From: Oscillospiraceae bacterium
Lineage (GTDB): Bacteria > Bacillota > Clostridia > Oscillospirales > SIG627
Direction of reading: 5' to 3'
Assembly: GCA_015065085.1 (NCBI GenBank)
Contig: SVQW01000007.1
Span: 991-64,990 of the forward strand
DNA length: 64,000 nt
Made by a program: the position numbers and the translations under genes. Within the stretch, counting starts at the first letter, position 1, and each line of letters starts with the position of its first letter. The notes below the pieces were generated by a model. It was not told where the DNA came from. It saw only the letters and a list, made by a program, of their open reading frames with translations, and made no database searches. Positions 43,502 through 60,182 of the stretch are shown here, piece by piece.

Positions 43502-43513
43502 ACTGTGTATAAT
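43485..43513 (+). promoter_or_regulatory. Sigma-A type promoter for abiEi-abiEii
   Basis: TTGACT, a 17-nt spacer, then TATAAT. It overlaps repeat copy 2. Confidence 0.55.
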
Positions 43514-43544
43514 ATTATTGGATTATTATTGTCGAGGTGAGTTT

Positions 43545-44138: not shown

Positions 44139-44959
44139 GCAAAGCAATGAGTCTGAAAGCGAAAATTCGCAATATTGCCAAGCAGAAAAATATTCCTGCA
44201 CAGGTCATTCTGCAAAACTATATGTTTGAACGTTTGCTTGTCCGTTTGTCTGCTTCTGAATACAAAGAGAAGTTTGTATTAAAGGGAGGTATGTTGGTAG
44301 CCGCCATTGTCGGACTGGACAACCGTGCAACAATGGATATGGACACCACGCTCAAAAATCTCCCTCTTACACCGGAAGCGATTCGCGGTGCGTTGGAGGA
44401 TGTCTGCAACATCGCATTTGATGACGGAGTTGAGTTTGAGATTGGCACGATATCTCCCATACGTGAAGATGATATTTACGGCGGTTATCGTGTCATGTTG
44501 AATGCAAAATTTGATACTCTGCTGACGCCACTCAGTATTGATGTATCCACTGGTGATGCAATTACACCTCATGCAGTACAGTACAATTTCTCTGAAATTT
44601 TTGATGATGAGAAATCATATGAACTGTGGGCATACAACATAGAAACCGTTATGGCTGAAAAGGTGGAAACCATTTTGCGACGCGGCGTGTTTAATACTCG
44701 CCCAAGAGATTTCTATGATGCCTATATACTGACCACAACACAGAACTTCGATAAGGCTGTGTTTGCGGATGCATTAAAAGCAACGGCAAATCACCGGGGA
44801 ACTACAGAGCAGATTGCGGATATTTCCGATATTCTTCATAACATCGAAGAAAGCCCGGAACTTAAAACAATGTGGGACAAGTATCGCAAGCAGTTTGCGT
44901 ATGCTGCGGATATTGAGTATGGTCAGATTATGGATGTGCTGAAAATGTTGATAGAATAA
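44135..44959 (+). CDS. abiEii: AbiEii/AbiGii-family nucleotidyltransferase toxin (DUF1814)
   Basis: The N-terminus is LKAKIRNIAKQKNIPAQVILQNYMFERLLVRLS...FVLKGG, with DMD in the NTase core. There is a 4-nt ATGA overlap with abiEi. Confidence 0.85.
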   Translation: MSKAMSLKAKIRNIAKQKNIPAQVILQNYMFERLLVRLSASEYKEKFVLKGGMLVAAIVGLDNRATMDMDTTLKNLPLTPEAIRGALEDVCNIAFDDGVEFEIGTISPIREDDIYGGYRVMLNAKFDTLLTPLSIDVSTGDAITPHAVQYNFSEIFDDEKSYELWAYNIETVMAEKVETILRRGVFNTRPRDFYDAYILTTTQNFDKAVFADALKATANHRGTTEQIADISDILHNIEESPELKTMWDKYRKQFAYAADIEYGQIMDVLKMLIE

Positions 44960-45038
44960 CAGCCCGGACAAAATACAGAGGTATAGATATCATTTACAAA
45001 CAACACTCATAAAAATTTCAGAAAATGGAGTAAAACAC

Positions 45039-47603
45039 ATGAAAAATAATACGTATTTGACCGAAGCAGATGTCGAAACAAAGTTTATTTATGCATATTT
45101 AATTGGTGAAGTTTTGGAGGTCAGCGGTAAAAATGTCAGTTTTCATGTCCCCGTAAAAATTACTCAGGGACGAAAAACTGTAACCAAAGAAGCTGATGTT
45201 CTCATAAAGAACGACAAAGGCGAAAATGTGGTAGTCATTGACTCGAAAGCTCCAGACGAAAAGCTTGAGCCATACTTTGATCAAATAGATTCTTATGCAT
45301 TTAGGTTGGAAACTCCTATCTCAATTCTTTCAAATTACTACAGAACAGTTGTTAGGGTATATTTGTCTGGAAACAAAAAGGAAATCATTTTCGACCAAAC
45401 GATAGAGGAAATGGAAGCAGATAGTTTCAAGGAATTAATAGAAATTGTAAAAAAATATATGGAAACACCTTCCGCTACTTTTGATGGTAAAAAAATGGAT
45501 GCAGAAAAAAGTAAAATAGTTGATTATAGACGTTTGTTTAGACAAATACATACAAAAATCAGATCGATTGACAAATTAGATCCGTCTGCATCATTTGATG
45601 AATTCTCCAAAATACTGTTTATCAAAATAATCAATGATAAAATCTCTGCCGAAGAACGCTTAACTCCTGAACGTATTAAAGTGTTTGGCACAACCAAAGA
45701 GCAATCCAATTATGTTGACACTTGGTTCCAAAAGAAAGTTAAGGAGCATTACCCTGGTATTTTTGCAAATAATGTGAAAATATCCGCATCGTCAACTGCA
45801 TTGATCGCTATATTGGAAACATTGGATGGACGATTTGATTTAAAGGATTCATTAAACGATATTAAGGGTAGAGCTTTTGAAGAATTCCTTCCTAGCCAGT
45901 TAAGGGGAAAGGGCCTTGGACAGTTCTTCACTCCAAGATCTGTCGTTGAATTTATGATAGAGTTGGCTGATATATCTATAACTGATAAGGTTTTGGATTT
46001 CGCATCCGGCTCAGGTGGATTCCTTATTAAAGCTTTTGACAGAAAAAGAAAATTAATAGAAGAAACACAACAACAATATTTAGATTTAATAGGAAAAAAT
46101 CGAGAGCAGCTATTGGAAGATACCAAGACTCAAATTTTCGGTATTGATGCTGAACCTAGAGCTGTAAGAACAGCAAAGATGAACATGCTGTTATGGGGTG
46201 ACGGAAAGCAGATCCAACACGGAAACGGATTGGATACCAAAGACTACACAGGAACTCCATATTTTGCGAAGGAGTACAACGAATCCGATCCTTCTACCGG
46301 AGTAGATATCATACTCGCTAATCCACCATTCGGTTCTACAGAAGAAGATCAGAATATTTTGGCAAAGTACACACTTTCCAAAAAGATCAAAAAGAAAGAC
46401 GAGAGTGGAAGAGAGTATATTGTTAATCAAAAGGAAAAGACAGAGCATCTGTTTATCGAGAAAGCATTCAAAATGTTAAGACCAAACGGCAAACTCTTAA
46501 TTGTTTTACCAGAAGGAATCTTTAGTAATAATGATTCTAAAGTTAGGGATTACATTCTGAGCCATTTTGTCATTGATACTATTGTGAAATTACCCAAGCA
46601 TACGTTTGTCATGTCTGGTGTAGACACAATAAACACCGTAATTTTGATTGCTAGAAAGAACACTGCTGAGCGAATGAAGAAAATCAAATTTTCAGATAAA
46701 AAAACTTGGATTAACTCAGCTGAAATTATGACAATCAATTTTGCTTCTGTTAACCAAACGGGATTTGAACCTTCTGGCAAAGCAATAAACGGAGGATATA
46801 CAAATAGTGATCTGAAAATATTAGCAAACAAAATCACAAATGGTGACTTTAGCCAAATTTTAGCGGATCCTATCGAATACGCTGATCTTGCATTTAGCGA
46901 TGACAACAAGAACGAAGTTTGGAAAGAATCTATGGTCAAGTTTTTAACTATAGGTTTTACAAGTGTCCCTAAAAGATTGGATCCGACATATTATTTCTTT
47001 AGCGAAGAAACCAAAGATATTATGAAATCTTTTATTGGACTGGATATTACAGAAGATAATTTAGGCAGAAATCGCCTCACGGAGCAAGAACTTATCGAAG
47101 ATGTTGAAAAGACATACACATATGTTTCGGTTGTAAAAACCATTGATGGTTCAATCACAACGACAGAAGAAAAAACAGTTGATGAGCTATTAGCAACTGA
47201 TTTGCCACAAAAACTTCAATATGGGGATATTGTGTTTAACCCGTACAGAATAAACACAGGATCAATAATCTTGATTGATTCGCGTGAAAAAAACTTGGTA
47301 ACAAGTCCAGCTTATGTTGTAGTTAGAGATTTAAAAATTGATTCAAAATATTTCGTTCAATTATTGAAAACTCCGTTTATGAAATATCAGATACAAGTAC
47401 TGGCATCAGGATCTGTAAGAGATAATTTTTCGGGTTCCAATTTGTATGAATTGAAAATCCCTAATATTGATTCATATGAGCAAAAAGATCTCGTGTTAAG
47501 CATTAATAAAATGCTTAAGAAAATCAAAAAACATTCTCAAGCAATAGACCAAGACATTAATTCTATAAATGCACTACTCAGCAATTTTGGCGGCTTAGAT
47601 TAA
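45039..47603 (+). CDS. Single-polypeptide restriction-modification enzyme candidate: HsdR_N/PD-(D/E)xK-like N-terminus + gamma-class N6-adenine methyltransferase + one HsdS-like TRD (Type IIG/IIL-like)
   Basis: Nuclease-fold pattern EADVLI...VVVIDSKAP. MTase motifs GQFFTPRSVV, DFASGSGGFL and ILANPPFGS. The C-terminal TRD-like region ends in ...LASGSVRDNFSGSNLYELKIP. No separate hsdR or hsdS gene is nearby. Confidence 0.75.
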   Translation: MKNNTYLTEADVETKFIYAYLIGEVLEVSGKNVSFHVPVKITQGRKTVTKEADVLIKNDKGENVVVIDSKAPDEKLEPYFDQIDSYAFRLETPISILSNYYRTVVRVYLSGNKKEIIFDQTIEEMEADSFKELIEIVKKYMETPSATFDGKKMDAEKSKIVDYRRLFRQIHTKIRSIDKLDPSASFDEFSKILFIKIINDKISAEERLTPERIKVFGTTKEQSNYVDTWFQKKVKEHYPGIFANNVKISASSTALIAILETLDGRFDLKDSLNDIKGRAFEEFLPSQLRGKGLGQFFTPRSVVEFMIELADISITDKVLDFASGSGGFLIKAFDRKRKLIEETQQQYLDLIGKNREQLLEDTKTQIFGIDAEPRAVRTAKMNMLLWGDGKQIQHGNGLDTKDYTGTPYFAKEYNESDPSTGVDIILANPPFGSTEEDQNILAKYTLSKKIKKKDESGREYIVNQKEKTEHLFIEKAFKMLRPNGKLLIVLPEGIFSNNDSKVRDYILSHFVIDTIVKLPKHTFVMSGVDTINTVILIARKNTAERMKKIKFSDKKTWINSAEIMTINFASVNQTGFEPSGKAINGGYTNSDLKILANKITNGDFSQILADPIEYADLAFSDDNKNEVWKESMVKFLTIGFTSVPKRLDPTYYFFSEETKDIMKSFIGLDITEDNLGRNRLTEQELIEDVEKTYTYVSVVKTIDGSITTTEEKTVDELLATDLPQKLQYGDIVFNPYRINTGSIILIDSREKNLVTSPAYVVVRDLKIDSKYFVQLLKTPFMKYQIQVLASGSVRDNFSGSNLYELKIPNIDSYEQKDLVLSINKMLKKIKKHSQAIDQDINSINALLSNFGGLD

Positions 47604-47692
47604 TTTTGGATTGTTGATGCAGTACCTAAATATTTGGCAATCAAGGCGTAGGTAACATACTGCCCTGCTTGATTTTTAATCAAACATTTAAC

Positions 47693-47729
47693 AATAGGAC
47701 TTGTACTCGATTCGAGCACAAGTCCTATT
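47693..47729. terminator. Strong hairpin after the RM gene (terminator or element-end structure)
   Basis: AATAGGACTTGTACTCG-ATT-CGAGCACAAGTCCTATT: a 16-bp stem with one mismatch, and no clean T-run on either side. Confidence 0.45.
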
Positions 47730-47969
47730 GCCGTCTATTTGGTTATTTATTCCATTACTTCCAACATTATTTTTGCTTCCAGCTTACCATAAAATCCAAG
47801 TTAATCGACACCCGAAAGGTCAAACTCAGACGGATTTTCAATTATGGATATTTCAGAATAAGTGGCGCACATACCTTTTGTGTAAGAGAAATCGTTGTTC
47901 CTGTCAATGAAAAAACATACAGAGGGTGTGACTTGAAGCTTAGGGGACAAATACCCAAAGTCTCGGGTA

Positions 47970-48089
47970 TAGCCACCCATTTCCCATACTTTTTCCCATA
48001 CCTTTGAATTAAAATTCAAAATATTTTTTTGTTTTTCCTAAACTTTTAAGTGTTTGGTCGGGGGACAAATTTCAAAAAAAATATATAAT
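47970..48089 (+). promoter_or_regulatory. Promoter module copy 1, upstream of the zinc-ribbon/TPM operon
   Basis: A 36-nt block, TAGCCACCCATTTCCCATACTTTTTCCCATACCTTT (direct repeat TTCCCATAC x2), then TTTTCCTAAACTTT, then GTGTTTGGTCGGGGGACAAAT. GGGACA (48062-48067), a 16-nt spacer, then TATAAT (48084-48089). Confidence 0.6.
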
Positions 48090-48234
48090 TATACTTACAA
48101 GAACAGAAGCGATAGGATATTATTTTTGCGTTCTAAGGATAACAAGGGGCATGCAAACACTTGTATATGAACTTCACCAACGGATGCGTAAAAAACTCTG
48201 TTATTCTAACGCGTTTCCGAAGGGAGGATAGCCT

Positions 48235-48597
48235 ATGCAAAAAAAAATGGCAAAGCACAGATTGATTACCGACAGCGAAGGAAAATTACGTTATCAGTTT
48301 TTCTGCGATTTATCGGGATCGCTTGAGTATACGTCAAGCTCCATAAATGCAGATTCCGAGGAGGAACTTGAACGTGTATGGAATAAAAACGCAAAAGAGC
48401 ACTTCAATCTATGTCACAAATGTGGGATTTATGTAAGCTCTGAAATGTTTAACGCCGAGGTTTTTGAGTGTGTAGCTTGTGCTCCGTGGGAGGAGGCTCC
48501 GAAATATTGTCCTCATTGCGGACAAAAGGTTAATGGTTCGGGAAACAACTGCAGCTATTGTGAAAAGAAACTGCGTTATGAGGGGGGAGAGGTATGA
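48235..48597 (+). CDS. Small protein with two zinc-ribbon motifs
   Basis: CHKCG...CVAC and CPHCG...CSYC. RBS GGGAGG 8 nt upstream. Confidence 0.65.
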   Translation: MQKKMAKHRLITDSEGKLRYQFFCDLSGSLEYTSSSINADSEEELERVWNKNAKEHFNLCHKCGIYVSSEMFNAEVFECVACAPWEEAPKYCPHCGQKVNGSGNNCSYCEKKLRYEGGEV

Positions 48598-48601
48598 AAC
48601 T

Positions 48602-48874
48602 ATGACAGCACCTTATGAAAAAATACGTCTTGAGAATATGAAGCACTATGGCTTCGGTCCCGAGGTAATGAAAAGAATAAAGGTTTGCAAGGAATGCGGT
48701 GCAAAAGCTGATTCGGAGCTTCTCTTTTGTCCCGATTGTGACAGACCTCTTCCGACGGAAACTCTCTATACGCTGTATGTGCATAGCCATTTTGTATGTA
48801 CAAAGTGCAAAACGGTAGTATCGGCAAAATATAAATTCTGTCCACAGTGTGGTAAAAAACTTATTTTTGAATAA
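48602..48874 (+). CDS. Double zinc-ribbon protein (90 aa)
   Basis: CKECG...CPDC and CTKC...CPQCG. The start is set at the ATG at 48602 (MTAPYEK), 4 nt after the previous stop. The longer ORF-track start overlaps the upstream gene. Confidence 0.6.
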   Translation: MTAPYEKIRLENMKHYGFGPEVMKRIKVCKECGAKADSELLFCPDCDRPLPTETLYTLYVHSHFVCTKCKTVVSAKYKFCPQCGKKLIFE

Positions 48875-48923
48875 TCAGATAATAAAACAAAAACAAAAAA
48901 ATACATTTACGGAGGTATTTATT

Positions 48924-49682
48924 ATGGCAAAGAACACATGTGCAATATGCGGAGCAGAAGTTAATCTGTTTACAGGACAGCAGCTGGCGGATAAGACATA
49001 TATCTGCCGTAAGGTATGTGCAAAGAAGTGTCTTAAAATCTTCGATTTTGTTCCCGCAACTCTTGACGAGGTAAAATCACACATTGAGCAGGTTGAAAAG
49101 GGTACAAAAGTATGGAATCAGATTTTTGTTCCTTTGCAGAAAACAAAGGTCAAGGAAGAAAAGCTGAAGAGATTTGGTGCCCCCCTTTATGTGTCACCCT
49201 CAACAGGACTTATGGCACTTGTTGAAACAAGATATAAGTTCATTGTTTTCGGCAAAAGCCAGCTTGCCTGCGTTTACAGAATAGCAGATCTCGCTTCCTA
49301 TGAATATGAGGAAGAGTCGGTGAAAAATTCCGAGGGCAAGATAGAAAAGAAGGAATTTTGCCGTATGTTCTTCCACAATACGGCAGGTCTTTACAGCTTC
49401 CGCTTTGAGATAAGCAACAGCCTTGAATTTAAGTCGCTTGAAAAGTATTTTGATACTCTCTTCGGTATTCAGAAAACTCTTGGCAACTCCATAAACAACG
49501 CAAAAAAGCAGTGGGCAGCAATCAAGGATGTTGCAGGTGCGGTAAAGGCTGCGGCTTCAGGTGACGAAAATGTCGAAGAAAAAGCGGCAGCGGCGGCAGA
49601 AAGTCTCGGTACATATCTTGAGGGTGACAGAACAGAGCTTATCGCAAAGGCTGATGCGGCTCTTGCAGGTGTTCAGTATTGA
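48924..49682 (+). CDS. N-terminal zinc-ribbon protein with a central beta-rich (PH-like?) domain and an Ala-rich helical tail
   Basis: CAICG...C.KVCAKKC at the N-terminus. The start is the ATG at 48924 after GGAGGT. The domain guesses come from sequence texture only. Confidence 0.6.
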   Translation: MAKNTCAICGAEVNLFTGQQLADKTYICRKVCAKKCLKIFDFVPATLDEVKSHIEQVEKGTKVWNQIFVPLQKTKVKEEKLKRFGAPLYVSPSTGLMALVETRYKFIVFGKSQLACVYRIADLASYEYEEESVKNSEGKIEKKEFCRMFFHNTAGLYSFRFEISNSLEFKSLEKYFDTLFGIQKTLGNSINNAKKQWAAIKDVAGAVKAAASGDENVEEKAAAAAESLGTYLEGDRTELIAKADAALAGVQY

Positions 49683-51091
49683 CGGCGGTGATAACATTGA
49701 AGAAAATAATATCATTGTTGCTTGTTTTTACACTTTGTGCGATGCTGTTTGTTTCCTGCACTCAAGAGAACGATAAGCCTGATGTGAAAAACAATAACGA
49801 TGTAACAGAAACTGATGACAGTCAAGGTGACAAAACAACATCAAAACCTGATAAATCAGAAAAGGAAGACGAGTTACTTACAGAACTCAGAAAGCAGATA
49901 TCCGACAGCGGTGCAAAGCTGGGTGTTGCATATCTCGGATACTTTGTTGAAACATTTGATGACACAAAAGATTATTTTAAATATTTAGGACTGTATGAAG
50001 ACTATCCCTTTGTTGAAGAAATGGAGCTTGGTGACCTTATCGTAAACGAAAACAACGAGATGTATCTTGTTGTACCTGCCGATAGTACAGAAACAGTCAA
50101 GGTATACGACGCAGTACCTGATGAAGAAACCTATGAGCTTGAAAAGGGTGAGCTTTTAGGCGAATCGGCAAATGGAAAACCGTTCCTTCTTCTTTGCAAT
50201 GTCAGCGAAATAATACCAAATGTGATCATAAGCACAAGCACCCTTGAATACAGTCCCTGTCTTTCGGGCGAGGACGGAGAGCTTGTAGAGAATCAAGATA
50301 TTTACGATTTTTCGCCTTATGAGAAAATAAAAGAGTATTATGACATTCAGAACGGTCTTGCAGATGGAGCAGATCCCATATTCTGCGGAAGCTGGTTCGG
50401 AGAATCGGAAAACGGCGACTACGAGCTTATGTCAATGAGCCTTGAACTTTACGTAGACGGAACAGCAACCTACGTATACGGCGTTGGAAACAGCGAGCCT
50501 GTAGAGTGGTTTATGGGCGAATGGAGCTTTGATGCCGAGCGTGATATGATCATTCTTGATATGTACGGTGGACCGCCAAACGACTATGAAGATTCCGATG
50601 AATTGTTTATAGACCCGTATGAACTGAAGTGCGGTTTTAAGTGGGATATGGATTACCGTGATGACGGAACTTATCTCATTCTTACACACGAAGAGGGCGA
50701 TCCCATACTGTGGGGCAAGAACGGTGCAACATTTGAGTTTGCAGAGGCTTCCGGGCCCGAGGAAGAGGAAGATTACTCTTACCTTATCGGCTCATGGGGA
50801 ATAATCTCTGAAAAATCAGAAACATACCTTGAGTTGTTTCCCGATGGCTCGGCGCACTATTATGTAACAAGGGACGATGTGACAGAAAAAGACCTTCGCG
50901 GCTCATGGCATGCCGAAGCTCTTACATTGTACCTTACACTCGGCGAAAATGAAGCTTTGACGGGAGCTTACGGTATTATGTATGACGGTGAGCTGCTTAT
51001 TCTGTCCATTCTCGATGATTTCGCCGAACCGCTGACGGCTTTTATGGCAGAAAACGGATATGACAGCTTTATACTTTGCGGTGTAGGCTGA
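49679..51091 (+). CDS. Acidic secreted lipoprotein with repeated G-x-W lipocalin-like modules
   Basis: Signal peptide KKIISLLLVFTLCAMLFVSC (lipobox). Non-ATG start candidates lie at 49679 (TTG), 49688 (GTG) and 49697 (TTG). Repeated GSWFGE/GEWSFD/GSWGII/GSWHAE segments. Confidence 0.65.
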   Translation: MTAVITLKKIISLLLVFTLCAMLFVSCTQENDKPDVKNNNDVTETDDSQGDKTTSKPDKSEKEDELLTELRKQISDSGAKLGVAYLGYFVETFDDTKDYFKYLGLYEDYPFVEEMELGDLIVNENNEMYLVVPADSTETVKVYDAVPDEETYELEKGELLGESANGKPFLLLCNVSEIIPNVIISTSTLEYSPCLSGEDGELVENQDIYDFSPYEKIKEYYDIQNGLADGADPIFCGSWFGESENGDYELMSMSLELYVDGTATYVYGVGNSEPVEWFMGEWSFDAERDMIILDMYGGPPNDYEDSDELFIDPYELKCGFKWDMDYRDDGTYLILTHEEGDPILWGKNGATFEFAEASGPEEEEDYSYLIGSWGIISEKSETYLELFPDGSAHYYVTRDDVTEKDLRGSWHAEALTLYLTLGENEALTGAYGIMYDGELLILSILDDFAEPLTAFMAENGYDSFILCGVG

Positions 51092-51120
51092 TAATACAGT
51101 AATTTGAAAGGAGTGTTTAT

Positions 51121-52206
51121 ATGGCTACTTTACAAGAATACAAATGCCCGTGCTGTGACGGTGCGATAGCGTTTGACGCAGAATCTCAGAAAATGAAATG
51201 TCCTTTCTGCGGCAACGAATTTGAAATGGAAACCCTTGCTTCCTATGACAGTGAGCTTCAGAACGACTCGGAAAGCAACATGCAGTGGGAAACGAATGCA
51301 GGTTCCGAGTGGCAGGAAGGAGAAGCAGACGGCCTTCGTACATACCGGTGTAACTCCTGCGGAGGCGAAATTGTAGGCGATGATACGCTGGCAGCTTCAA
51401 AATGCCCCTATTGCGGAAATCAGGTTGTTATGATGGGACAGTTCTCAGGTGCTCTGAAGCCTGACTTTGTTATTCCATTTAAGCTTGATAAGAAAGCTGC
51501 GAAGGAAGCGCTCCTTAACCACTATAAAGGCAAGAGGTTCCTTCCTAAAGTTTTCAGAGACCAGAATCATATTGAAGAAATCAAGGGCGTTTACGTTCCT
51601 TTCTGGCTCTTTGATGCAGAGGCCGATGCCAACATCAGATACAGAGCAACACGTATTCGCCATTGGAGTGATTCGAGGTACGAATACACCGAAACAAGCT
51701 TTTATAATGTAACTCGTCAAGGCTCACTCGGCTTTGAAAAAGTTCCCGTTGACGGCTCGACAAAGATGGCAGATGACCTTATGGAATCAATTGAACCCTT
51801 TGACTTTTCACAGGCTGTCGATTTCCAAACAGCATATCTTGCAGGCTATATTGCTGACAAATATGACGTTGACGCCGAAACAAGTATTGAAAGAGCAAAT
51901 GAAAGAATCAAGAAGAGCACCGAAGATGCTTTTGCCTCAACAGTTGACGGTTACACTACCGTAACACCCGTAATGTCAAGTATAAATCTTGAAAACGGCA
52001 CTTCAAAGTATGCCCTTTTCCCCGTGTGGCTTCTCAACACCGATTGGAACGGTCAGAAATACACCTTTGCAATGAACGGTCAGACAGGCAAGCTTGTGGG
52101 CGATCTCCCTCTTGACAAGGGTGCATACAAGAGATGGCTTTTCGGACTTACAGGTGTGATAAGTGCAGTATGTCTCGGCATATCTTATCTGCTCTGGTTA
52201 ATTTGA
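51121..52206 (+). CDS. Two-zinc-ribbon protein with a C-terminal TM anchor (YdjG-like architecture)
   Basis: CPCCDG...CPFCG and CNSCGG...CPYCG, a soluble domain of about 230 aa, and the C-terminal helix WLFGLTGVISAVCLGISYLLWLI. Confidence 0.7.
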   Translation: MATLQEYKCPCCDGAIAFDAESQKMKCPFCGNEFEMETLASYDSELQNDSESNMQWETNAGSEWQEGEADGLRTYRCNSCGGEIVGDDTLAASKCPYCGNQVVMMGQFSGALKPDFVIPFKLDKKAAKEALLNHYKGKRFLPKVFRDQNHIEEIKGVYVPFWLFDAEADANIRYRATRIRHWSDSRYEYTETSFYNVTRQGSLGFEKVPVDGSTKMADDLMESIEPFDFSQAVDFQTAYLAGYIADKYDVDAETSIERANERIKKSTEDAFASTVDGYTTVTPVMSSINLENGTSKYALFPVWLLNTDWNGQKYTFAMNGQTGKLVGDLPLDKGAYKRWLFGLTGVISAVCLGISYLLWLI

Positions 52207-52219
52207 GGGGGTGTGAATT

Positions 52220-53017
52220 ATGAAAAACAGAATATTTACACTGCTTGTTGCAATATTGTCGGTTATAATGCTGACAGTAGGCGTTGCTGCCGAAGATGAG
52301 TATTATCGTTTGCAGGATTTAACAGAAGTACCGCTTCTTACCGAAAGCGAAAACGCTGAAATTCTTGCTCTTCTTGATGAAGTAAGCGAGAGACAAGGAA
52401 TGGATATTGCCATTCTCACGGTAGATGCTGTGGAAGAAGGTCTTACCGTTGAAGAGGATGCTACCGAATGGTATGAGTATCTCGGTTACGGCGACGACGG
52501 TGCAATGCTGTATATCAGCATGGAAGAAAGTGACTGGTATTATCTCACAAAGGGCTTCGGAATTACCGCAATGACAGATGCGGGAATAGATTACATATCC
52601 GAAAAGTTCCTTCCTGCTCTTTCCGACGGTGACTATGCAGGTGCATTCAGAGCATATATCCAGTATACCGACGAGTTTATAACACAGGCAAAAACAGGCA
52701 AACCCTACGACGTGGGAAATATGCCAAAAGAGCCCTATGACTTGCCGATGAGCCTTCTCGTTTCAGTAGGCATTGGTCTTTTGGTTTCTCTTATAATAAC
52801 AAGCATATGGAAAGGTCAGCTCAAGAGCGTTGCGTTCAAGACACAGGCGACAAGTTACTTGAAGCCCGGAAGCCTTAGCATCGCAAACTCCCGTGACTTC
52901 TTCCTATACAGAACAGTTGACCGCAGAGAAAAAGAAAATGAATCATCATCCGGTGGTTCTTCAACACACAAGTCATCTTCCGGTGGAACATATGGCGGAA
53001 AAGGCGGAAAATTCTAA
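52220..53017 (+). CDS. TPM-domain membrane protein (YgcG/YdjH-like) with a Gly/Ser-rich tail
   Basis: Signal/TM helix, TPM-like region (LLTESENAEILALLDEVSERQGMDIAILTV), a second TM helix, and the tail SSSGGSSTHKSSSGGTYGGKGGKF. Confidence 0.7.
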   Translation: MKNRIFTLLVAILSVIMLTVGVAAEDEYYRLQDLTEVPLLTESENAEILALLDEVSERQGMDIAILTVDAVEEGLTVEEDATEWYEYLGYGDDGAMLYISMEESDWYYLTKGFGITAMTDAGIDYISEKFLPALSDGDYAGAFRAYIQYTDEFITQAKTGKPYDVGNMPKEPYDLPMSLLVSVGIGLLVSLIITSIWKGQLKSVAFKTQATSYLKPGSLSIANSRDFFLYRTVDRREKENESSSGGSSTHKSSSGGTYGGKGGKF

Positions 53018-53032
53018 AAAAAGGAGTTTGCC

Positions 53033-53428
53033 ATGAGTATTGTAGGAAATTGGAAAGTTAAAAAGATTATACACTTCGAAGGAGATGAGCCAAAGCTTAT
53101 CACCATTGATGAGTTTAATGCTATTCCGGAAGAACAGAAAGACGAAGAACAGGCTCAAATGGCAAGCTTGGTGCTTGATATTACCGAGGACGGAAAACTC
53201 ACAATGATGATTCCCATTCCGGCTCAAGCAATTGAAGAAGCAAGAGCAGAAGGAGCTGAGGTTACAGACGACGGCTTTGTAATTGCAGACAAATTCGAGT
53301 GGCTTAAAAGAGATGACAAGTATTTCTGCCATAACGAAAGCATGGGCACAGATCCAATGCCTCTTGAGTTCGATGATGACGGCTGTCTTGAATTTATGGG
53401 TGGAATGCTGATTTTTGAAAAAATTTAA
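53033..53428 (+). CDS. Small cytoplasmic hypothetical protein (lipocalin-like GNWKV start)
   Basis: A 131-aa ORF with RBS AAGGAG and no signal peptide. Confidence 0.55.
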   Translation: MSIVGNWKVKKIIHFEGDEPKLITIDEFNAIPEEQKDEEQAQMASLVLDITEDGKLTMMIPIPAQAIEEARAEGAEVTDDGFVIADKFEWLKRDDKYFCHNESMGTDPMPLEFDDDGCLEFMGGMLIFEKI

Positions 53429-53502
53429 CCAATTATCGAAGATATAGCCGATTGTTTCCGTCTGATTATAGTTAAAATATAAAATTAAAAGGAGAAGCTG
53501 TT

Positions 53503-54765
53503 ATGAAAAAGTTTTTGGTATTAATGTTAGCAGCACTTATGTGTATTTTCCTTGCCGCTTGCGGTGGCGATAAAACTCCCACACAGAATCCGGAGAATAA
53601 TAACACGGAAGTAAATACACCCGAAACACCCGATGAACCGGAAGTCCCCGCAGAAAAGAGCTTTGAAGAATTAAAGGCTGAATTTATGTCAAAAACAGCA
53701 GAAGACCTTGTAAAGGAATATTTTGCAGATGCGGCAAATCCCACAGCACAGGAATTTGCAAAGCTTTATGAAAATTATGCATTCCTTGATACAAAGGATG
53801 ACTATGAATTTGACAACGATAATACTATCGTCGCAGCTGTAAAGCTTATAAAGGACAGCGGTGCAAATACTGTAAATGCAGCTAATCAGGAAGTAATAAG
53901 CTATCTTATCGGCAGTAAGTATGACCTTGCAAGAGCTTATGCTTACAGACAGCAGTCTACCAACAATATTAGCTCGGATGCCGAAATCTATGCACCTCTT
54001 CTCGAAAAGGCTCTTTCCGAAACAGAACCCAAGGTGGTTTATGCAGTGCTTAAGGGACTTCCTCAGTCCTACGGTAACAATGATGAATTCTGGGCATTTG
54101 CACTTCCTTTCGCAAAGAGCGAAGATGCAAACCTAAGAAGAGCAGTTACCACTGCATTTGACAGATTTGATATTGAAAGTAAGGATGCGGCACTTGAAGC
54201 AGCGATCGCACTTATGAACGATGCGGATGATACAGTAAAGGGAAGTGCTTTAAGATACGCAGGAGAGATCGGCGACGACAGACTTGTGGAAAACTACAAA
54301 ACGGTTCTTATGGATGAATCTCTTGCAAAGAAGTTCCACGGCAATGCTCTTCTCGGACTTACCGATATCTGGTATGCATATCCTACGCATGATAATACCT
54401 CCGAAGCAGCTTACAAGCTCACAATGGAATATTACACAATGAACACAACAAACCCCGACATTCCTTCATGGAACGGTCTTACAGGCATCAAAATGAAGGG
54501 TTCGCAGGCAAAATATGATGAATGGAGAGCAAGTGCCGACTACTTTGATGAAAGAGAAGTTGTTAATGCAATGCTTGCTATCGTTGCTGACGCAGAGGCT
54601 TCAAAGAATGTAAAGTCAAGTGCCATCGATAACATAGCTTCCTGGGGTACACTTGAGGATGCACAGGCTGCAAAGGCAACAGTTGAAGCATTCCCCGACG
54701 ACAATAAGGACAAAGCAAGCCTTATCACCAAGTGCGACAGCGCAATCACCAAGCTTTCCAAGTAA
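53503..54765 (+). CDS. Lipoprotein with HEAT/armadillo-like helical repeats
   Basis: Lipobox FLAAC. Repeated NLRRAV...DADDTVKGSALRYAGEIGD-type helical repeat segments. Confidence 0.6.
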   Translation: MKKFLVLMLAALMCIFLAACGGDKTPTQNPENNNTEVNTPETPDEPEVPAEKSFEELKAEFMSKTAEDLVKEYFADAANPTAQEFAKLYENYAFLDTKDDYEFDNDNTIVAAVKLIKDSGANTVNAANQEVISYLIGSKYDLARAYAYRQQSTNNISSDAEIYAPLLEKALSETEPKVVYAVLKGLPQSYGNNDEFWAFALPFAKSEDANLRRAVTTAFDRFDIESKDAALEAAIALMNDADDTVKGSALRYAGEIGDDRLVENYKTVLMDESLAKKFHGNALLGLTDIWYAYPTHDNTSEAAYKLTMEYYTMNTTNPDIPSWNGLTGIKMKGSQAKYDEWRASADYFDEREVVNAMLAIVADAEASKNVKSSAIDNIASWGTLEDAQAAKATVEAFPDDNKDKASLITKCDSAITKLSK

Positions 54766-55530
54766 ATGAAAAAAGCGATGAAGATAATAGTTATAGTCGC
54801 CGCAGCTGCCGTAGGTGTTGCAGCGTTATTCGGAGCACTGACTTCCTCAGGCGGTGAAAAATACAGAATGGAATACGACAGTAAGGATCTGTACCGCGGA
54901 GCAAAGGACAGCTACAAGGCAGGGCAAAAGGTAACGCTCCACTTTCCGTACGTTGCAACCGACACAAGCTATAGATTTTACCTCAGCGGAAAGGCAATAG
55001 ATGCGACCTATTCCGATTTCGGCGGATATAAGTTAGAGTTTGTTATGCCTCCGTATGATGCGAAGCTTGAATGTGTGACAAAAAATGACATGGTGTACAC
55101 TCCTCCTGAAGAAGGCATAAAAGAAACACTTCTTTATGAGTATTACCGTGCAACTTCAGCCGTTGCTGACGGTCACCCCGAAACGTATACCATAGCTCTC
55201 TACTATATATCCGAAACAGACGCCGAGGGCAATCAGGAGGACAGAACAGAGCTTCGTGTAACAGAGGTAAAATCCGACGGAACAAAAACAGAAAATGTCT
55301 ATGATGCAAGGCTCTACGGCTCATATGAGTGTGACCTTATTGCCGACGAATATCATATGCACGGCTGGAACACTATGAGAAATACAATCTCCGAGGATGG
55401 CTTGCTCGTTGCAGTAAAATTCAAAACCGGCACAGGATATATCAGAGTATCCAATGAGTGTATGCCCGAAAACGGCAGGGAAGGCATGGGAAAGATCCGT
55501 AAGATTCTCGAAGGTTATATGACAGAATAA
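54766..55530 (+). CDS. N-terminally membrane-anchored hypothetical protein
   Basis: The ATG abuts the previous TAA. It has one N-terminal TM helix (IIVIVAAAAVGVAALFGAL). Confidence 0.55.
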   Translation: MKKAMKIIVIVAAAAVGVAALFGALTSSGGEKYRMEYDSKDLYRGAKDSYKAGQKVTLHFPYVATDTSYRFYLSGKAIDATYSDFGGYKLEFVMPPYDAKLECVTKNDMVYTPPEEGIKETLLYEYYRATSAVADGHPETYTIALYYISETDAEGNQEDRTELRVTEVKSDGTKTENVYDARLYGSYECDLIADEYHMHGWNTMRNTISEDGLLVAVKFKTGTGYIRVSNECMPENGREGMGKIRKILEGYMTE

Positions 55531-55546
55531 TTACATATCCAAACAA

Positions 55547-55576
55547 AAAAGTCCTCGGATTGCTCCGGGGACTTTT
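55547..55576. terminator. Bidirectional terminator between convergent operons
   Basis: AAAA-GTCCTCGGA-TTGC-TCCGGGGAC-TTTT. Confidence 0.75.
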
Positions 55577-55587
55577 GTTATATACAT

Positions 55588-56625
55588 TCAATTTTCCGAT
55601 ACTTCGGTTTCGTTTGAGAGATTGGCATAGTAAAGAAGCTGTTTTCTTGATGAAACACCGAGCTTCTGATAAATATTCTTGTTGTGGAATTTAAGGGTGT
55701 TTTCCTTTATGCCTACAGCTTCTGCCGTTTCCGCAGTGCTTTTTCCCGAAACGTAGAGGTCGAATATTTTTCTCTCGGTTACCGTAAGAAGCGAAATACC
55801 GTCGCAGAAACGCTTATACTCGTCTATCGGCTCTTCGGTTGTTTCTTCTGTTTCTGTATTTGCGGTCGTAGTTTCCGCTGCTTCTGTTTCTTTTACAGCT
55901 TGAGGAACAGGTATCTGTTTCGTTTTGAGCGAAGCCTCCGATTCTGTATTCGCCGTATGCTCCTGTACCTGAAGCATTATGTACAGCATAAGTAAAAACA
56001 GCTCGGTTATTATATAAGTGATGGAAAGAAACTCAAATTCAATGTCAATGATCTGTTCGATTCCCCATACGGCGATGTTGCCGAGTGTAACAGACGCAAG
56101 AAGCGTTGCATGGGAAGCCGAGGTTATTCTTCTCTTGATCATTGCATATATGATAATTCCTATCATTATTGCAAAATACAAAAGCAGATACAGCGCATAG
56201 ACTCTGTGAAGCGGACCGTATTCCTTGACAAGCGTTGTAAGACCGTCGGTTATGTCTATTGTTACCGATTTGTAATAGCAATTAAGGTAGCCCGGTGTTG
56301 CCGCAATAAGAAAGACGATGCAGGTTATGGGTAAAAGGGTTGCCGTTGCAATCTTTCTATATCCTGTCTTGCACACGTTCATTATTGTCATAAGCATACA
56401 TAGCGGCAGAAATGCCGAACCGAGGTATGCTATTCTGTTGGCAAGAAGAGCTTCGCCGAGCGTTTTTGAAATAGACAGACATAAATATCCGCCGTTTATT
56501 ATGAATACCGAAAAATACAGAAGTAACATCCATATTTCCTTTTTCTTCATTGCACAGCAGTATCCTATCGCAATAATAAGCGACAATACGGTGGTTGCCG
56601 CATAAATGATTGATATACTTGACAT
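55588..56625 (-). CDS. Seven-TM membrane sensor fused to a C-terminal LuxR/GerE-type HTH
   Basis: Seven hydrophobic segments, a T/E-rich linker, then the HTH (LTVTERKIFDLYVSGKSTAETAEAVGIKENTLKFHNKNIYQKLGVSSRKQL). The start is the ATG at 56625 after AAAGGTGAAACA. The ORF-track start overlaps the XRE gene. Confidence 0.75.
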   Translation of the reverse strand: MSSISIIYAATTVLSLIIAIGYCCAMKKKEIWMLLLYFSVFIINGGYLCLSISKTLGEALLANRIAYLGSAFLPLCMLMTIMNVCKTGYRKIATATLLPITCIVFLIAATPGYLNCYYKSVTIDITDGLTTLVKEYGPLHRVYALYLLLYFAIMIGIIIYAMIKRRITSASHATLLASVTLGNIAVWGIEQIIDIEFEFLSITYIITELFLLMLYIMLQVQEHTANTESEASLKTKQIPVPQAVKETEAAETTTANTETEETTEEPIDEYKRFCDGISLLTVTERKIFDLYVSGKSTAETAEAVGIKENTLKFHNKNIYQKLGVSSRKQLLYYANLSNETEVSEN

Positions 56626-56635
56626 TGTTTCACCT

Positions 56636-56857
56636 TTAGTTTTCTCCGTTAAGTACCCATTTTTCGTCATAGCCGAATTCAAGGGCAATAAGCTTTGCCA
56701 GGACAGGAGATATTTTTTTGTTGGCATTCTCACGGGAACGCCCATTTGTCGTGAGAATATATATATAGTTTTCGGTAACACCGAGACGGGCTGCAAATTC
56801 ACGCTTTGTGATTTTTTGTTCGCTTATTATTTTGTTCAGTCGGTCGGCAAGTGTCAT
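56636..56857 (-). CDS. XRE-family helix-turn-helix protein (73 aa)
   Basis: HTH region LNKIISEQKITKREFAARLGVTENYIYIL. Its start shares the TAATG junction with the upstream LuxR gene's stop. Confidence 0.75.
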   Translation of the reverse strand: MTLADRLNKIISEQKITKREFAARLGVTENYIYILTTNGRSRENANKKISPVLAKLIALEFGYDEKWVLNGEN

Positions 56858-58473
56858 TATATTTTACCTCCGTTATCCTGAGTATAAAGTGCGGCGTACC
56901 TTAACATTTGCTTTCTTGAGGAAACACCAAGCTTTTCGTAAATGTTGCCATTGTGAAATTTAAGTGTACTTTCCTTAATGCCCGTTATTTCAATAATTTC
57001 TTTAGCTGTTTTCCCTGCAAGATACATTTCAAAAATATTACGTTCAGATTTGGTCAGTGTCTTAATGCCTATGGCAAAATTTTCGTAATCCTCGGGATTT
57101 ATCTCGTTTTTGCGAGAATATGACAATTTTTCAATTTCGCCCTGTACCCTTGCAAGCTCGGTTTCGGCTTTTTCCTTTTCCTCCGAAAGCTCCTCGTAGG
57201 CGATTTCGTATTCCTTGTCCTTATCCGAAAGAAAACCAAAAAGGTCGCTGATTTCCAAAAATCTTGAATCGGATTGGGAATGTTCAAACCTTCTTATTTG
57301 TTCAAGGCCTTCCATTATCGGCTTCATAAAACGTTTGCTTAAGATACGGCATAGCGATATGGCGAAAGAGGAAAGAAGTATTAAGAATACAACAATCTGT
57401 ACAGCATTTGTGGAGACAGCCTTGTCAAAATCCTTTTTCGGCATCATGACAAGAAGCACATTTTTGCCCTCTGTGTCATACTCGGGTGAGCCTGCAAGCC
57501 CTATATATATTTCGTTTTCTGTTTCGAACACCAAAAGTCCGTCATCAGCCTTACTGATTTTTATATTACCTGCAGGAGGAAGAAAATATCCGTCCTCGGT
57601 TCCGCAAATCATCGCATTGTCGGCACTGATGTTGTCTCTTGATGTCAGCCACAGACACATTAGATGCTCAAGAATTGTAGACTGTGCGTGCTTCATTTTG
57701 AAGGCGTGCTCGCTTATCTCAAAGCCGCATACTCCAACAACATTACCGCCGGTTCCGAGAATCGGTACCGTCAGCAAAGTCGCATTTTCGCTTGTTCCGG
57801 GAATAGTTACAATATCTGTGAAATTGTATGCTGCTTCAAGGGGAACATCCGGAGCAATTTTAAGTATCTCTTCGTAATCAGGAAACAACCTCGTATCAAA
57901 TTCAAGCTGCCATTTTCTGTGAGGCATAACCGATGCTTCTTTTCCTATAGCGGCATCACCTCTGAAAAGAAGAAGTGTTTCGTCGGATAAGTTCTGTGAG
58001 CCTCGCTGAACATAAAGACCGGATCTTGAATGTCCATCCTTGTTTGAATTGCTGTTTACGGTAGTATCCAGCATAATGAAAATGCCCGAGCTTTCCGATT
58101 TGAGAATTTCATCTTTTAAAAGATCAAGAAGCAATCTTTGTATATCTGCAATATGCTCGGGAGAGTCATCAAGATCTTCGAAATCCAGTCCATTTGTTCT
58201 CAGATAGTGTGACAGTATTCTTGAGGCTTCTGATGAAAGGTTTGCAGCTCTCATTGCAAGCTCCTCGTGATGTGAGGTGATTTCCTTTTCAAAAACCTCC
58301 ATCTGAAGCTTTAAAGTATTTGCAAAAGTATCAGAGGGCTTTGCAAAGGTTCCGAGCATAATCATTCCAAAGGCGATTACAACGAGTATTACGACAGTCA
58401 GAATCATCATATATACGAACAGACTGTCTCTCATTTTCAGCTTCCCTTTGGAAAGAAACCTGGAAAAACGCAT
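56857..58473 (-). CDS. Membrane-tethered one-component regulator: TM, extracytoplasmic sensor domain of about 310 aa, TM, coiled coil, LuxR/GerE HTH
   Basis: Two TM segments (about residues 20-42 and 355-377). The C-terminal HTH is LTKSERNIFEMYLAGKTAKEIIEITGIKESTLKFHNGNIYEKLGVSSRKQM. RBS GGAGGAG. Confidence 0.75.
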   Translation of the reverse strand: MRFSRFLSKGKLKMRDSLFVYMMILTVVILVVIAFGMIMLGTFAKPSDTFANTLKLQMEVFEKEITSHHEELAMRAANLSSEASRILSHYLRTNGLDFEDLDDSPEHIADIQRLLLDLLKDEILKSESSGIFIMLDTTVNSNSNKDGHSRSGLYVQRGSQNLSDETLLLFRGDAAIGKEASVMPHRKWQLEFDTRLFPDYEEILKIAPDVPLEAAYNFTDIVTIPGTSENATLLTVPILGTGGNVVGVCGFEISEHAFKMKHAQSTILEHLMCLWLTSRDNISADNAMICGTEDGYFLPPAGNIKISKADDGLLVFETENEIYIGLAGSPEYDTEGKNVLLVMMPKKDFDKAVSTNAVQIVVFLILLSSFAISLCRILSKRFMKPIMEGLEQIRRFEHSQSDSRFLEISDLFGFLSDKDKEYEIAYEELSEEKEKAETELARVQGEIEKLSYSRKNEINPEDYENFAIGIKTLTKSERNIFEMYLAGKTAKEIIEITGIKESTLKFHNGNIYEKLGVSSRKQMLRYAALYTQDNGGKI

Positions 58474-58499
58474 ATTCTCCTCCGTTTAATCTACCGAAT

Positions 58500-59813
58500 T
58501 TAATTTACCGAAGTAAACATTTTCCATATCGCTTCGGCAAGGGCTTCGGAATTTTCATATAAATCGGGATTACGCTGTCCGATACGGACATCACCGTAAA
58601 AATCATACACCTTAGTGTAATAATCGGGGAAATTGGGCTCGGTTACCGCAGTGCAATTCTCTGCTGTATGTCCGAGTGCTTCATAAAGACTTTTGTATCC
58701 CTCATCCTTGAATTCGTAAGCTTTAATCTTATTAAAGGCGTCCTTTTTTATCGGCATATATCCTGTTTCCGAAACGAAAGCGAGATTTCTGTCGCTCTCT
58801 GTGAGCCATTTCACAAAAACTGATGCAGCTTCAGCCTTTTGAGTGGTGGTTTTGCAGCAAGCAAGTCCTACACCTGCCTGGGTAACAAGATTCTTGCCGT
58901 TTCCTGCCTGCGGAAGAGGAAGTACCTTAAGATTCATAGGCTCGTTTGTATTGTCGGGGTATGTGATTGTATCATTATAGTAAAGAATTGAAGCGCTTGA
59001 GCCGATACCGCAGGCAACCTCGCCCGTCATGACCTGGGTGTTTGAATAAAGATCGGATACCATAATGTGTCCCTTGGATATGGATGAAGCAAACTTCATA
59101 AAGCAGTCCTTAAAGGTTTCATTTGAGTAGTCGTACCAGCCGTCCTTATAAAAATCGTCAGCGCCTTGCGACATTGCGTAAAGCTCGATACAGCGCAAAG
59201 GATAGTCTACCGCACAAAAAGCCTTGCCGCCCGACCATTCATGATATTTTTCCGCCGCTTCAAAGAAGCCGTCCCATGTGGAAAGAGTTTCGTATGTAAC
59301 ACCGGTGTCAGCAGAAAAACGCCCGAATACACCGTCTGCCATAAAGAGAAGATGTGTGGATTTTGATACCGGGAATACCGCAAGGCTGTCGTCAACCATT
59401 CCGTCCGCCAGAAACTCCGGTACGATCTGTGAAAGCTCTTCCTGCGTGAACCGCTCGTTCCAGTTTACAAGGTTATCCTTGCCGAGAGCCTCTGCGTTGT
59501 TATTGTGACAGAAGAACAAATCGGGCATTTCCGGAGCACCGGGATGACCGGTCTGTGCATCAAGTAATTCCGGTCCTACTTCGGATGCGTTTGTCATAGA
59601 AGTAACATTTATGATTATTCCTTTTTCGCGACCTACTGTCTGATTGAACTCATTTACAAGCAGGTTCATTGGTGAGCTTGCCTGCTCGCCGTATACATGC
59701 CACAAGGTAAGAGTTACAGGATCATTAGGTGACAGCTCTGACTTTTCACCGCAACCTGTTATGCATCCGAGCATTGTCAAAGAAAGCATTAAAACTGCAA
59801 GTATTTTCTTCAT
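58500..59813 (-). CDS. Family-1 extracellular solute-binding lipoprotein (sugar-type ABC SBP) with no adjacent permease or ATPase genes
   Basis: Lipobox LGCITGC and an SBP_bac_1-like sequence throughout. The start is the ATG at 59813 after GAAGGAGGAAAA. The ORF-track GTG at 59840 lies in the shared promoter module. Confidence 0.8.
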   Translation of the reverse strand: MKKILAVLMLSLTMLGCITGCGEKSELSPNDPVTLTLWHVYGEQASSPMNLLVNEFNQTVGREKGIIINVTSMTNASEVGPELLDAQTGHPGAPEMPDLFFCHNNNAEALGKDNLVNWNERFTQEELSQIVPEFLADGMVDDSLAVFPVSKSTHLLFMADGVFGRFSADTGVTYETLSTWDGFFEAAEKYHEWSGGKAFCAVDYPLRCIELYAMSQGADDFYKDGWYDYSNETFKDCFMKFASSISKGHIMVSDLYSNTQVMTGEVACGIGSSASILYYNDTITYPDNTNEPMNLKVLPLPQAGNGKNLVTQAGVGLACCKTTTQKAEAASVFVKWLTESDRNLAFVSETGYMPIKKDAFNKIKAYEFKDEGYKSLYEALGHTAENCTAVTEPNFPDYYTKVYDFYGDVRIGQRNPDLYENSEALAEAIWKMFTSVN

Positions 59814-59833
59814 TTTTCCTCCTTCGGGCAGTG

Positions 59834-59953
59834 TAGCCACCCATTTCCCATACTTTTTCCCATACCTTTTTTCAAAAAAACAAAATTATTTTTATATTTT
59901 CCTAAACTTTCTGGTGTTTAGTCGGGGGACAAATCCGAGAAAATATATATAAT
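59834..59953 (+). promoter_or_regulatory. Promoter module copy 2, upstream of the SLH-protein operon and abutting the divergent SBP gene
   Basis: The same 36-nt block is identical to 47970-48005. It also has TTTTCCTAAACTTT and GTGTTTAGTCGGGGGACAAAT. GGGACA (59926-59931), a 16-nt spacer, then TATAAT (59948-59953). The internal spacings equal those of copy 1. Confidence 0.6.
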
Positions 59954-60182
59954 TACAATTGAAAGAATGCATAAGGGAGGGAACACATCTTGATTTCAGA
60001 TAGTAAGAGCCGAGAGGGGCTTGCATGATATGTAATATCATACAAAGGAATATCACTTTGGCGCTTCTGCTATTTCTTAGTATTATATCACATTATTTTG
60101 ATTTAGTCAAGACAAGCGCTACGCAAACATTTGTAAAACTTTTTTGTGAAAAAGATAAAATAAACGAAAAGGAGATTTCATT

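Follow-up and report, generated by a model that had tools for sequence, protein, structure and literature searches.

A putative SPFH-less variant of the SamG/SamH envelope-stress module in an Oscillospiraceae bacterium

The nine genes and their layout

The stretch of DNA analysed here (the window) covers 64 kb of contig SVQW01000007.1 from an Oscillospiraceae bacterium, and all coordinates are window positions unless a locus is named. Between 48235 and 55530, it contains nine open reading frames (ORFs) on the + strand, g1 to g9, among which are homologues of YdjG and YdjH from Bacillus subtilis, now also called SamG and SamH. An initial annotation had described nine co-oriented genes with very short spacers, and we could verify all nine ORFs at the coordinates, sizes and spacings first given, the start of g4 being the only point that had to be corrected.

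The first two genes encode small zinc-ribbon proteins, namely g1 (48235-48597), a cytoplasmic protein of 120 amino acids (aa) with two CxxC...CxxC zinc ribbons, and g2 (48602-48874), a double zinc-ribbon (DZR) protein of 90 aa. They are followed by g3 (48924-49682; 252 aa), in which a DUF4428 zinc ribbon precedes a long helix, a beta-sandwich and an Ala-rich helical tail, and by g4 (49679-51091), a 470-aa ORF for an acidic lipoprotein with a likely start at 49697. The YdjG/SamG homologue g5 (51121-52206; 361 aa) and the YdjH/SamH homologue g6 (52220-53017; 265 aa), which carries a TPM domain, come next. The last three genes encode an acidic cytoplasmic protein of 131 aa that occupies a variable slot (g7, 53033-53428), a 420-aa lipoprotein with HEAT-like repeats (g8, 53503-54765), and a 254-aa protein with an N-terminal membrane anchor that belongs to no recognisable family (g9, 54766-55530). 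Hydropathy profiles showed no hydrophobic segment in g1, g2, g3 or g7 and, read together with the sequences, lipobox signal peptides in g4 and g8 and the anchor of g9. All domain calls made earlier were reproduced (zinc ribbons in g1, g2, g3 and g5, TPM in g6, the lipoboxes of g4 and g8, HEAT in g8 and the anchor in g9), and Pfam and NCBIfam scans of the nine proteins revealed no effector-like domain such as a nuclease, NTPase, pore or protease.

From g1 to g9, the intergenic spacers measure 4, 49, -4, 29, 13, 15, 74 and 0 nucleotides (nt). The g4 ORF opens with a TTG codon at 49679, and its database twin is 464 aa long and starts at the second TTG (49697, MKKIISLL...). The start at 49697 is therefore likely, which would replace the 4-nt overlap between g3 and g4 by a spacer of 14 nt, and it gives g4 a canonical lipoprotein signal peptide beginning with MKK. 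Downstream of g9 lies the bidirectional intrinsic terminator that had been noticed before (~55542-55578), common to these genes and to a convergent regulator operon; its hairpin folds with -20.1 kcal/mol (z = -5.9) and is preceded by a run of A and followed by a run of U. Rfam searches found no riboswitch or leader RNA in the whole window at gathering thresholds, or in the region 47600-48300 at E <= 1. Judging from this arrangement, the nine genes probably form one operon.

The core pair g5-g6

The B. subtilis pspA-ydjGHI operon (locus L005), to which we were pointed by a locus (L003) with a Band_7_1 gene two genes upstream of a g5-TPM pair, was retrieved by an exact match to a published ydjG primer. 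The BLASTP alignment between g5 and YdjG is full-length (35% identity over 339 aligned positions, E 5e-81) and covers the central region throughout, and all eight zinc-ribbon cysteines of g5, C9, C12, C27, C30, C77, C80, C95 and C98 are invariant in an alignment that includes YdjG. Its zinc ribbons are matched by Pfam and NCBIfam at residues 6-36 and 73-104, and its C-terminal hydrophobic segment corresponds to residues 339-361. g5 is thus tail-anchored, with the two zinc ribbons and the central domain on the cytoplasmic side.

g6 matches the TPM_phosphatase family of Pfam at residues 39-150 (E 3.8e-21), is collinear with YdjH in a pairwise alignment, and has a Ser/Gly-rich tail that ends in GGKF, where the tail of YdjH ends in RGSF. 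A profile of the g6 family aligned to YdjH with an hhalign probability of 98.6% (E 1.2e-15) over 219 columns, which include the transmembrane (TM) and post-TM regions. The TPM domain lies between two hydrophobic segments (1-27 and 173-199) and the Gly-rich tail is cytoplasmic; the TPM domain is probably exposed on the outside. No solved-structure relatives were found for g6 or for the YdjG family.

The two genes stand in the same adjacent order as ydjG and ydjH in B. subtilis, and their products have the same architectures, with two zinc ribbons, a putative central domain and a TM helix in one and a TPM domain, a TM helix and a low-complexity segment in the other (PMC11237479). From these alignments, we consider it near certain that g5 and g6 are homologues of SamG and SamH. 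To call the genes a candidate novel system, as was done initially, is therefore an overstatement. The YdjG family comprises 1,669 clusters (50% identity) at E <= 1e-30 and 4,793 at E <= 1e-10, and the databases hold more than 8,000 close relatives of g5 from Oscillospiraceae, Ruminococcaceae and related metagenome-assembled genomes.

Several publications have dealt with the B. subtilis proteins. In the description by Ravi et al., YdjG combines two zinc ribbons with a YpeB-related NTF2-like domain and a TM helix, and YdjH a TPM domain with a low-complexity segment (PMC11237479). Scholz et al. reported an interaction between YdjG and YdjH, both of which are needed to bring the SPFH protein YdjI and PspA to the membrane (PMC8581546). 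More recently, YdjG, YdjH and YdjI were renamed SamG, SamH and SamI, with the proposal that SamGH forms a complex that senses stress and is kept in check by SamI (bioRxiv 10.64898/2026.02.06.704340).

Conservation across Clostridia

Our genome sample comprised one genome per species, and at least 560 of 600 pattern-matched stretches encode a relative. Conservation was counted with tblastn, using window proteins, B. subtilis proteins and clostridial queries, over the best 80 of these at least 560 stretches (L007-L086), which share 65-86% identity with g5 and come from Oscillospiraceae, Lachnospiraceae, Ruminococcus, Acutalibacteraceae and others. Contig L090 is near-identical to the window (99.98% identity). 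L001, L002 and L008 represent apparently one species.

The gene for g6 directly follows that for g5 in 79 to 80 of the 80 loci, and only these two genes are constant. An SPFH gene of the Band_7_1 type is found in 64 loci, and in 25 of the 30 loci that have at least 8 kb on both sides. Other genes recur less often: DUF6935 in 25/80, g3-like DUF4428 proteins in 19/80, g7-like proteins in 16/80, a g4-like lipoprotein in 10/80, a LuxR-TM regulator and an SBP gene in 6/80 each, g1 and g2 in 4/80 each, and g8 and g9 in a single locus each. When B. subtilis YdjI itself was the query, the SPFH gene was detected in 44 loci, always on the same strand as g5, almost always upstream of it, and mostly at a distance of 35-330 nt.

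The identity values of the two core proteins differ across the 80 genomes, with 65-86% for g5 versus 26-80%, mostly 30-50%, for g6. For a protein compared between Lachnospiraceae and Oscillospiraceae, the g5 values are remarkably high, which suggests either very strong constraint or horizontal spread.

Long co-oriented clusters with zinc-ribbon proteins and lipoproteins around ydjGH were found in several of these genomes. For instance, in L038 (Acetatifactor), the order is a lipoprotein, Band_7_1 with DZR, a TM protein, DUF4428 with DZR, a second lipoprotein, a g3-like protein, YdjG, YdjH, DUF6935 and a g7-like protein. The L014 cluster comprises g1-like and g2-like genes, a DUF4428-like zinc-ribbon protein, several lipoproteins, DUF6935, an SPFH gene, YdjG and YdjH, while in L087, divergent GerE regulator and SBP genes are followed by DUF6935, Band_7_1, DUF4428, YdjG, TPM and another DUF4428 gene. 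These clusters have in common with the window the ydjG-ydjH core, at 65-86% identity, as well as DUF4428, g1/g2-like, g4-like, g7-like and DUF6935 proteins and a divergent LuxR-type regulator with an SBP gene; they differ in that 64 of the 80 loci carry a Band_7_1 gene with a DZR, and the accessory content and order vary by locus. To our knowledge, such extended clostridial ydjGH clusters are undescribed.

Since the members recur but differ from place to place, the nine genes are not one conserved unit, and the nine-gene system of the initial annotation is overstated. On these comparisons, they represent one form of a neighbourhood that varies around a constant ydjG-ydjH core.

The window belongs, together with L090, L089, L007 and L001/L008, to the minority of loci that lack the SPFH gene. 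Using YdjI of B. subtilis and a pair of clostridial Band_7_1 proteins as queries, we found in the 64-kb window only the zinc-ribbon similarity of g2, and full-length B. subtilis PspA matched neither the window nor any clostridial locus, the PspA domain of Pfam being likewise absent from the listings of neighbouring genes. Thus, the best-documented outputs of the B. subtilis system are not encoded here.

g8 was found only in the close relatives L007, L089 and L090, and g9 only in L001/L002/L008 and L089. Homologues of g7 are 28-35% identical and occur in the vicinity of ydjGH, in most cases behind a DUF6935 gene. In the g7 slot, between g6 and g8, L089 has a gene for a 346-aa DUF5067 protein (L089:11941-12981), and L008 lacks both g7 and g8.

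The window has a DUF6935 gene of its own, outside the nine genes (63254-63832, + strand; Pfam E 2.8e-60). In the 25 loci mentioned above, the DUF6935 homologue and ydjG are no more than 10 kb apart, and a frequent order is ydjH, immediately followed by DUF6935, and then a g7-like gene. In L088 (3535-5718), genes for DUF6935, for two small proteins of 135 and 125 aa and for a g3-like DUF4428 protein form a block with no ydjGH within 8 kb; a DUF6935/DUF4428 sub-module can therefore exist apart from the SamGH pair. Our literature searches found no paper that mentions DUF6935 and no relevant paper for DUF4428.

This variability raises the question of whether g5 and g6 alone are the functional unit and the other seven genes are unrelated lineage-specific passengers that happen to be co-transcribed with them, in which case there would be no nine-gene system. 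Such a reading would account for the restriction of g8 and g9 to close relatives, the replacement of g7 in L089 and its absence from L008, the rarity of g1 and g2, the small size of the g4 family (29 members), and the occurrence of g3, DUF6935 and small genes in L088 away from ydjGH. However, the divergent genomes L014, L038, L044, L048 and L087, whose flanks differ, repeatedly have g1 with g2, DUF4428 proteins, lipoproteins, g7-like proteins and DUF6935 at distances of up to 10 kb from ydjGH, and the tight spacing and single terminator in the window also argue against passengers. We regard this reading as rather unlikely.

The accessory proteins

The Pfam, NCBIfam, PADLOC and PHROGs scans returned only generic zinc-ribbon matches for g1, g2 and g5 and nothing for g7 and g9. 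The DZR match of g1 is weak (E 7e-4, below the Pfam cut-off) and that of g2 is clear (E 3.8e-11). Homologues of g1 are paired with g2-like genes in L001/L002/L008, L007, L089, L014 and L048. Clostridial Band_7_1 (SamI-like) proteins have a C-terminal DZR to which g2 is similar (E 5.5e-5 and 0.008), and B. subtilis YdjI itself ends in a double zinc ribbon, so that zinc ribbons also occur in the cytoplasmic partner of the known system.

The g3 family has 717 members, for which no solved-structure relatives were found, and in several other genomes a g3 homologue lies directly upstream of a ydjG-like gene. The structural model of g3 (mean pLDDT 74) begins with a zinc ribbon and a long helix, continues with a helix-capped sandwich of seven strands (82-179), and ends in an Ala-rich helical tail, one segment of which is modelled with low confidence. 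PH and PTB domains dominate the matches of this model in a Foldseek search of the PDB (the PTB domain of TENC1 with probability 0.84, Brag2, GEP100, neurofibromin, Avo1 and Vps36), and we tentatively describe the modelled sandwich as PH-like. According to a preprint, homologues of the membrane nuclease SNIPE that lack TM helices have PH or DUF4428 domains at their N-terminus, in the position that a membrane anchor would otherwise occupy. g3 likewise combines DUF4428 with a tentatively PH-like sandwich, and it differs from the SNIPE homologues in having no nuclease or other effector domain. By analogy with these proteins, the composition of g3 suggests peripheral membrane targeting.

In the model of g4 (mean pLDDT 77), which has a pI of 4.1, a signal peptide and a disordered linker precede an alpha/beta domain and two beta-barrels. 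In a structure search, the barrels matched APCDD1 (E 1.5e-4), BFA1 and lipocalin-like proteins with probabilities of 0.99-1.0. The four G-x-W modules noted earlier are thus probably the lipocalin-type first strands of the two barrels. The N-terminal half of g4 is homologous to lipoproteins encoded beside the SPFH gene in other clusters. NlpE, the lipoprotein of the Cpx system, also came up as a weak structural match (probability 0.41) to the two-barrel g4; the likeness is an analogy only, as APCDD1, BFA1 and lipocalins match better, there is no Cpx-like two-component system, and the host is Gram-positive.

As regards the remaining proteins, a profile search of the PDB with g7 gave no match, and no solved-structure relative was found for g9. 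We also considered g7 as a free-standing lipocalin-like module of the g4 type on account of a common G-x-W motif, and rejected this proposal (BLASTP E 2.6; hhalign 0.2%). For g8, Pfam gave a weak HEAT_2 match, and the repeats were confirmed by their similarity to alphaRep HEAT-like repeat proteins (E 1e-12).

A duplicated promoter module and its regulators

Upstream of g1 lies a promoter or regulatory module of 137 nt (47967-48103, + strand), which contains the blocks TCCCATAC-N4-TCCCATAC, TTTTCCTAAACTTT and GTCGGGGGACAAAT, followed by TATAAT. The promoter-like site itself is GGGACA-16-TATAAT (48062-48089); only this sigma-70-like site, with a weak -35 element, was found. This module had been called dedicated to the operon. 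It is real, but it is not dedicated, as a second copy with 81% identity (59831-59967, + strand) stands upstream of a gene for an SLH-domain protein. The blocks occur nowhere else in the window, where they would not be expected by chance. Both copies are kept at the same two positions in L089 and, in a more diverged form, in L008, and the matches to the module all came from the close lineage of the window.

Between the two copies, a convergent operon (55588-59813, - strand) encodes, in its order of transcription, an SBP (58500-59813), a LuxR/GerE regulator with two TM helices (56857-58473), a small helix-turn-helix protein (56636-56857) and a 7TM-LuxR/GerE regulator (55588-56670), all on the - strand. 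This operon is syntenic in L001/L008/L089, and homologous pairs of regulator and SBP genes adjoin other ydjGH clusters. The relevance that had been attributed to the nearby sensor-regulators is supported by their recurrence and by the shared module. The LuxR-type regulators, whose genes lie between the two copies of the module, may bind there, which makes it a candidate binding region.

The SLH-domain gene (60183-63230, + strand) encodes 1,015 aa. Its only recognisable domain is SLH, with the best Pfam stretch at residues 826-868, and its counterpart in L008 shows 55% identity. A Metallophos/5'-nucleotidase gene stands before the SLH gene in L001/L008.

The module common to the operon and the SLH gene could also be taken to mean that the cluster assembles or chaperones extracytoplasmic proteins, such as the co-regulated SLH protein, and is not a stress sensor; the TPM domain and the lipoproteins would then assist in the folding, insertion or anchoring of such surface proteins. 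TPM proteins have been linked to the assembly and repair of membrane complexes, and Ravi et al. proposed a chaperone-like role for TPM together with band-7 proteins (PMC11237479). Moreover, the tandem barrels of g4 resemble BFA1, an ATP-synthase assembly factor (E 2e-3), and some related clusters, for example L048, contain genes for large secreted proteins. Nevertheless, deletion of samH in B. subtilis suppresses the phenotype of a samI deletion, which points to signalling by SamGH; SLH genes lie near ydjGH in just 2 of the 80 loci; and there is no direct evidence for any client protein. Taken together, we hold an assembly or chaperone function to be improbable.

A possible envelope-stress module

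The interpretation that we favour, with a probability of roughly 0.55, is that the operon is an SPFH-less, accessory-rich variant of the known but poorly understood SamG/SamH envelope-stress module. Under this interpretation, g1 to g9 would be one transcription unit built around a SamG/SamH-type membrane pair, and the analogy with the B. subtilis proteins would make g5 and g6 a sensor of envelope stress within the membrane and a platform for docking. SamI, the SPFH protein with a C-terminal double zinc ribbon that usually is their partner in the cytoplasm, is missing here, and g1, g2 and g3 would be the likely docking or restraining partners at the inner face. At the outer face, g4, g8 and g9 may serve, alongside the TPM domain, as lineage-specific partners or cargo. 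Transcription would start from an activator-type promoter, and, because the 137-nt module is duplicated before the SLH gene, both units are probably driven by the LuxR-type regulators and the SBP encoded between them, so that the operon and the SLH gene might constitute a small cell-envelope regulon. The earlier proposal of an envelope-associated stress function is therefore retained, on account of the homology of g5 and g6 to SamG and SamH; the neighbourhood from which it had been argued does not carry it.

Several differences from B. subtilis must be considered. Neither pspA nor the SPFH gene ydjI/samI is present in the operon or elsewhere in the 64 kb, seven genes (g1-g4 and g7-g9) are additional, and the host is an uncultured rumen or gut Oscillospiraceae. 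In B. subtilis, the induction of the system by envelope stress is SigW-dependent, while the promoter in the window is a duplicated module near LuxR-type regulators and is not of an annotated SigW type. The proposed logic is also similar to that of the Psp system of E. coli (PspBC and PspA), in which a membrane sensor complex is combined with a restraining cytoplasmic partner, an analogy drawn by the authors of the SamGHI study; there is no sequence relation between the systems, and neither PspA, PspB, PspC or PspF nor an AAA+ activator is found here.

A number of observations weigh against this interpretation or at least reduce our confidence in it. We know of no organism in which the biochemical activity of SamG/SamH has been established. 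The roles given to g1-g4 and g7-g9 derive solely from co-location; of these genes, g8 and g9 are confined to close relatives, and the g7 slot is variable. The PH-like assignment of g3 is weak, as the best Foldseek E value against the PDB was 0.05 and none was <= 0.001. The SPFH and PspA homologues that are missing from the window could lie elsewhere in the genome. Finally, we infer the operon from spacing and a single strong terminator, and the link between regulators and promoter from position and the duplicated module. Our confidence in the mechanism is therefore moderate.

A broader and more tentative proposal, which we consider possible but do not favour, is that Clostridia of the gut and rumen have a modular and so far undescribed SamGH supercluster, in which SamG/SamH is combined with DUF6935, diverse lipoproteins and interchangeable zinc-ribbon adaptors (SPFH-DZR proteins, free DZR proteins or DUF4428-PH-like proteins). 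In the window, g1-g3 would then replace SamI as brake or adaptor, and the LuxR sensors, membrane-bound and of the one-component type, would act on the duplicated promoter module and so control an envelope regulon that includes the SLH gene.

SamG/SamH is widespread in Firmicutes and has so far been studied only in B. subtilis, together with the SPFH protein SamI and PspA. A natural variant without the SPFH partner would bear on what SamG/SamH does alone and on what docks to it, all the more as this variant has instead free zinc-ribbon and PH-like proteins, its own LuxR-type regulators and a duplicated promoter. For DUF4428, DUF6935, the g7-like proteins and the lipocalin-like lipoproteins, the clusters provide a first functional context. 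We find the locus moderately interesting for envelope-stress biology and for the annotation of these families; it is not a new type of system.

The neighbouring defence island

Upstream of the operon, a mobile island (40791-47603) contains a large serine recombinase with DUF4368 (40791-42452, - strand), AbiEi/AbiEii (43518-44959) and an 854-aa type IIG restriction-modification (RM) enzyme (45039-47603), with a terminator hairpin after the RM gene (47677-47745). Its G+C content of 35-40% is the lowest in the window. DNA homology to L007 and L089 begins at 47966, at the start of the promoter module, and is broken only at the g7 slot; it reaches at least 62.9 kb in L089 and, in L007, runs to the end of the contig within g8. 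The island is shared only with the near-identical L090 and is absent from L089, L007 and L008. Its boundary is fixed on the right only (47966), since the genes upstream of the homology in L089, L007 and L008 have no counterpart in the window by which a left end could be placed by synteny.

Based in part on these neighbours, the operon had been put forward as a candidate stress or anti-phage system, and one could imagine a novel abortive-infection system that senses phage attack at the envelope. Apart from the adjacency to AbiE and the RM enzyme in this strain, such a function would be in line with the DUF4428 and PH domains in homologues of the nuclease SNIPE and with weak PHROG matches of g2, g3 and g5 to zinc-ribbon families. 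However, the matches in PADLOC-DB do not go beyond the level of zinc ribbons (g2, E 4e-4; g5, three at E >= 0.014), none of the nine proteins has an effector-like domain, and the core pair is very widespread, in stretches and in sequence clusters alike. AbiEii and RM homologues were found in 0/80 related loci each and the serine recombinase in 2/80, in counts that did not include a full DefenseFinder or PADLOC scan of the flanks. As the island is strain-specific and lies outside the conserved block, the adjacency of AbiE and RM says nothing about the operon and is, on this synteny, incidental. Thus, we regard an anti-phage function as very improbable. The case illustrates that proximity to defence genes can stem from a strain-specific island and that a comparison with island-free relatives is needed.

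At the equivalent place, L089 has TrkH/TrkA, and L008 has other genes together with a DUF4368/TnpW fragment; this fragment is a hint that the region upstream of the operon is a hotspot of integration.

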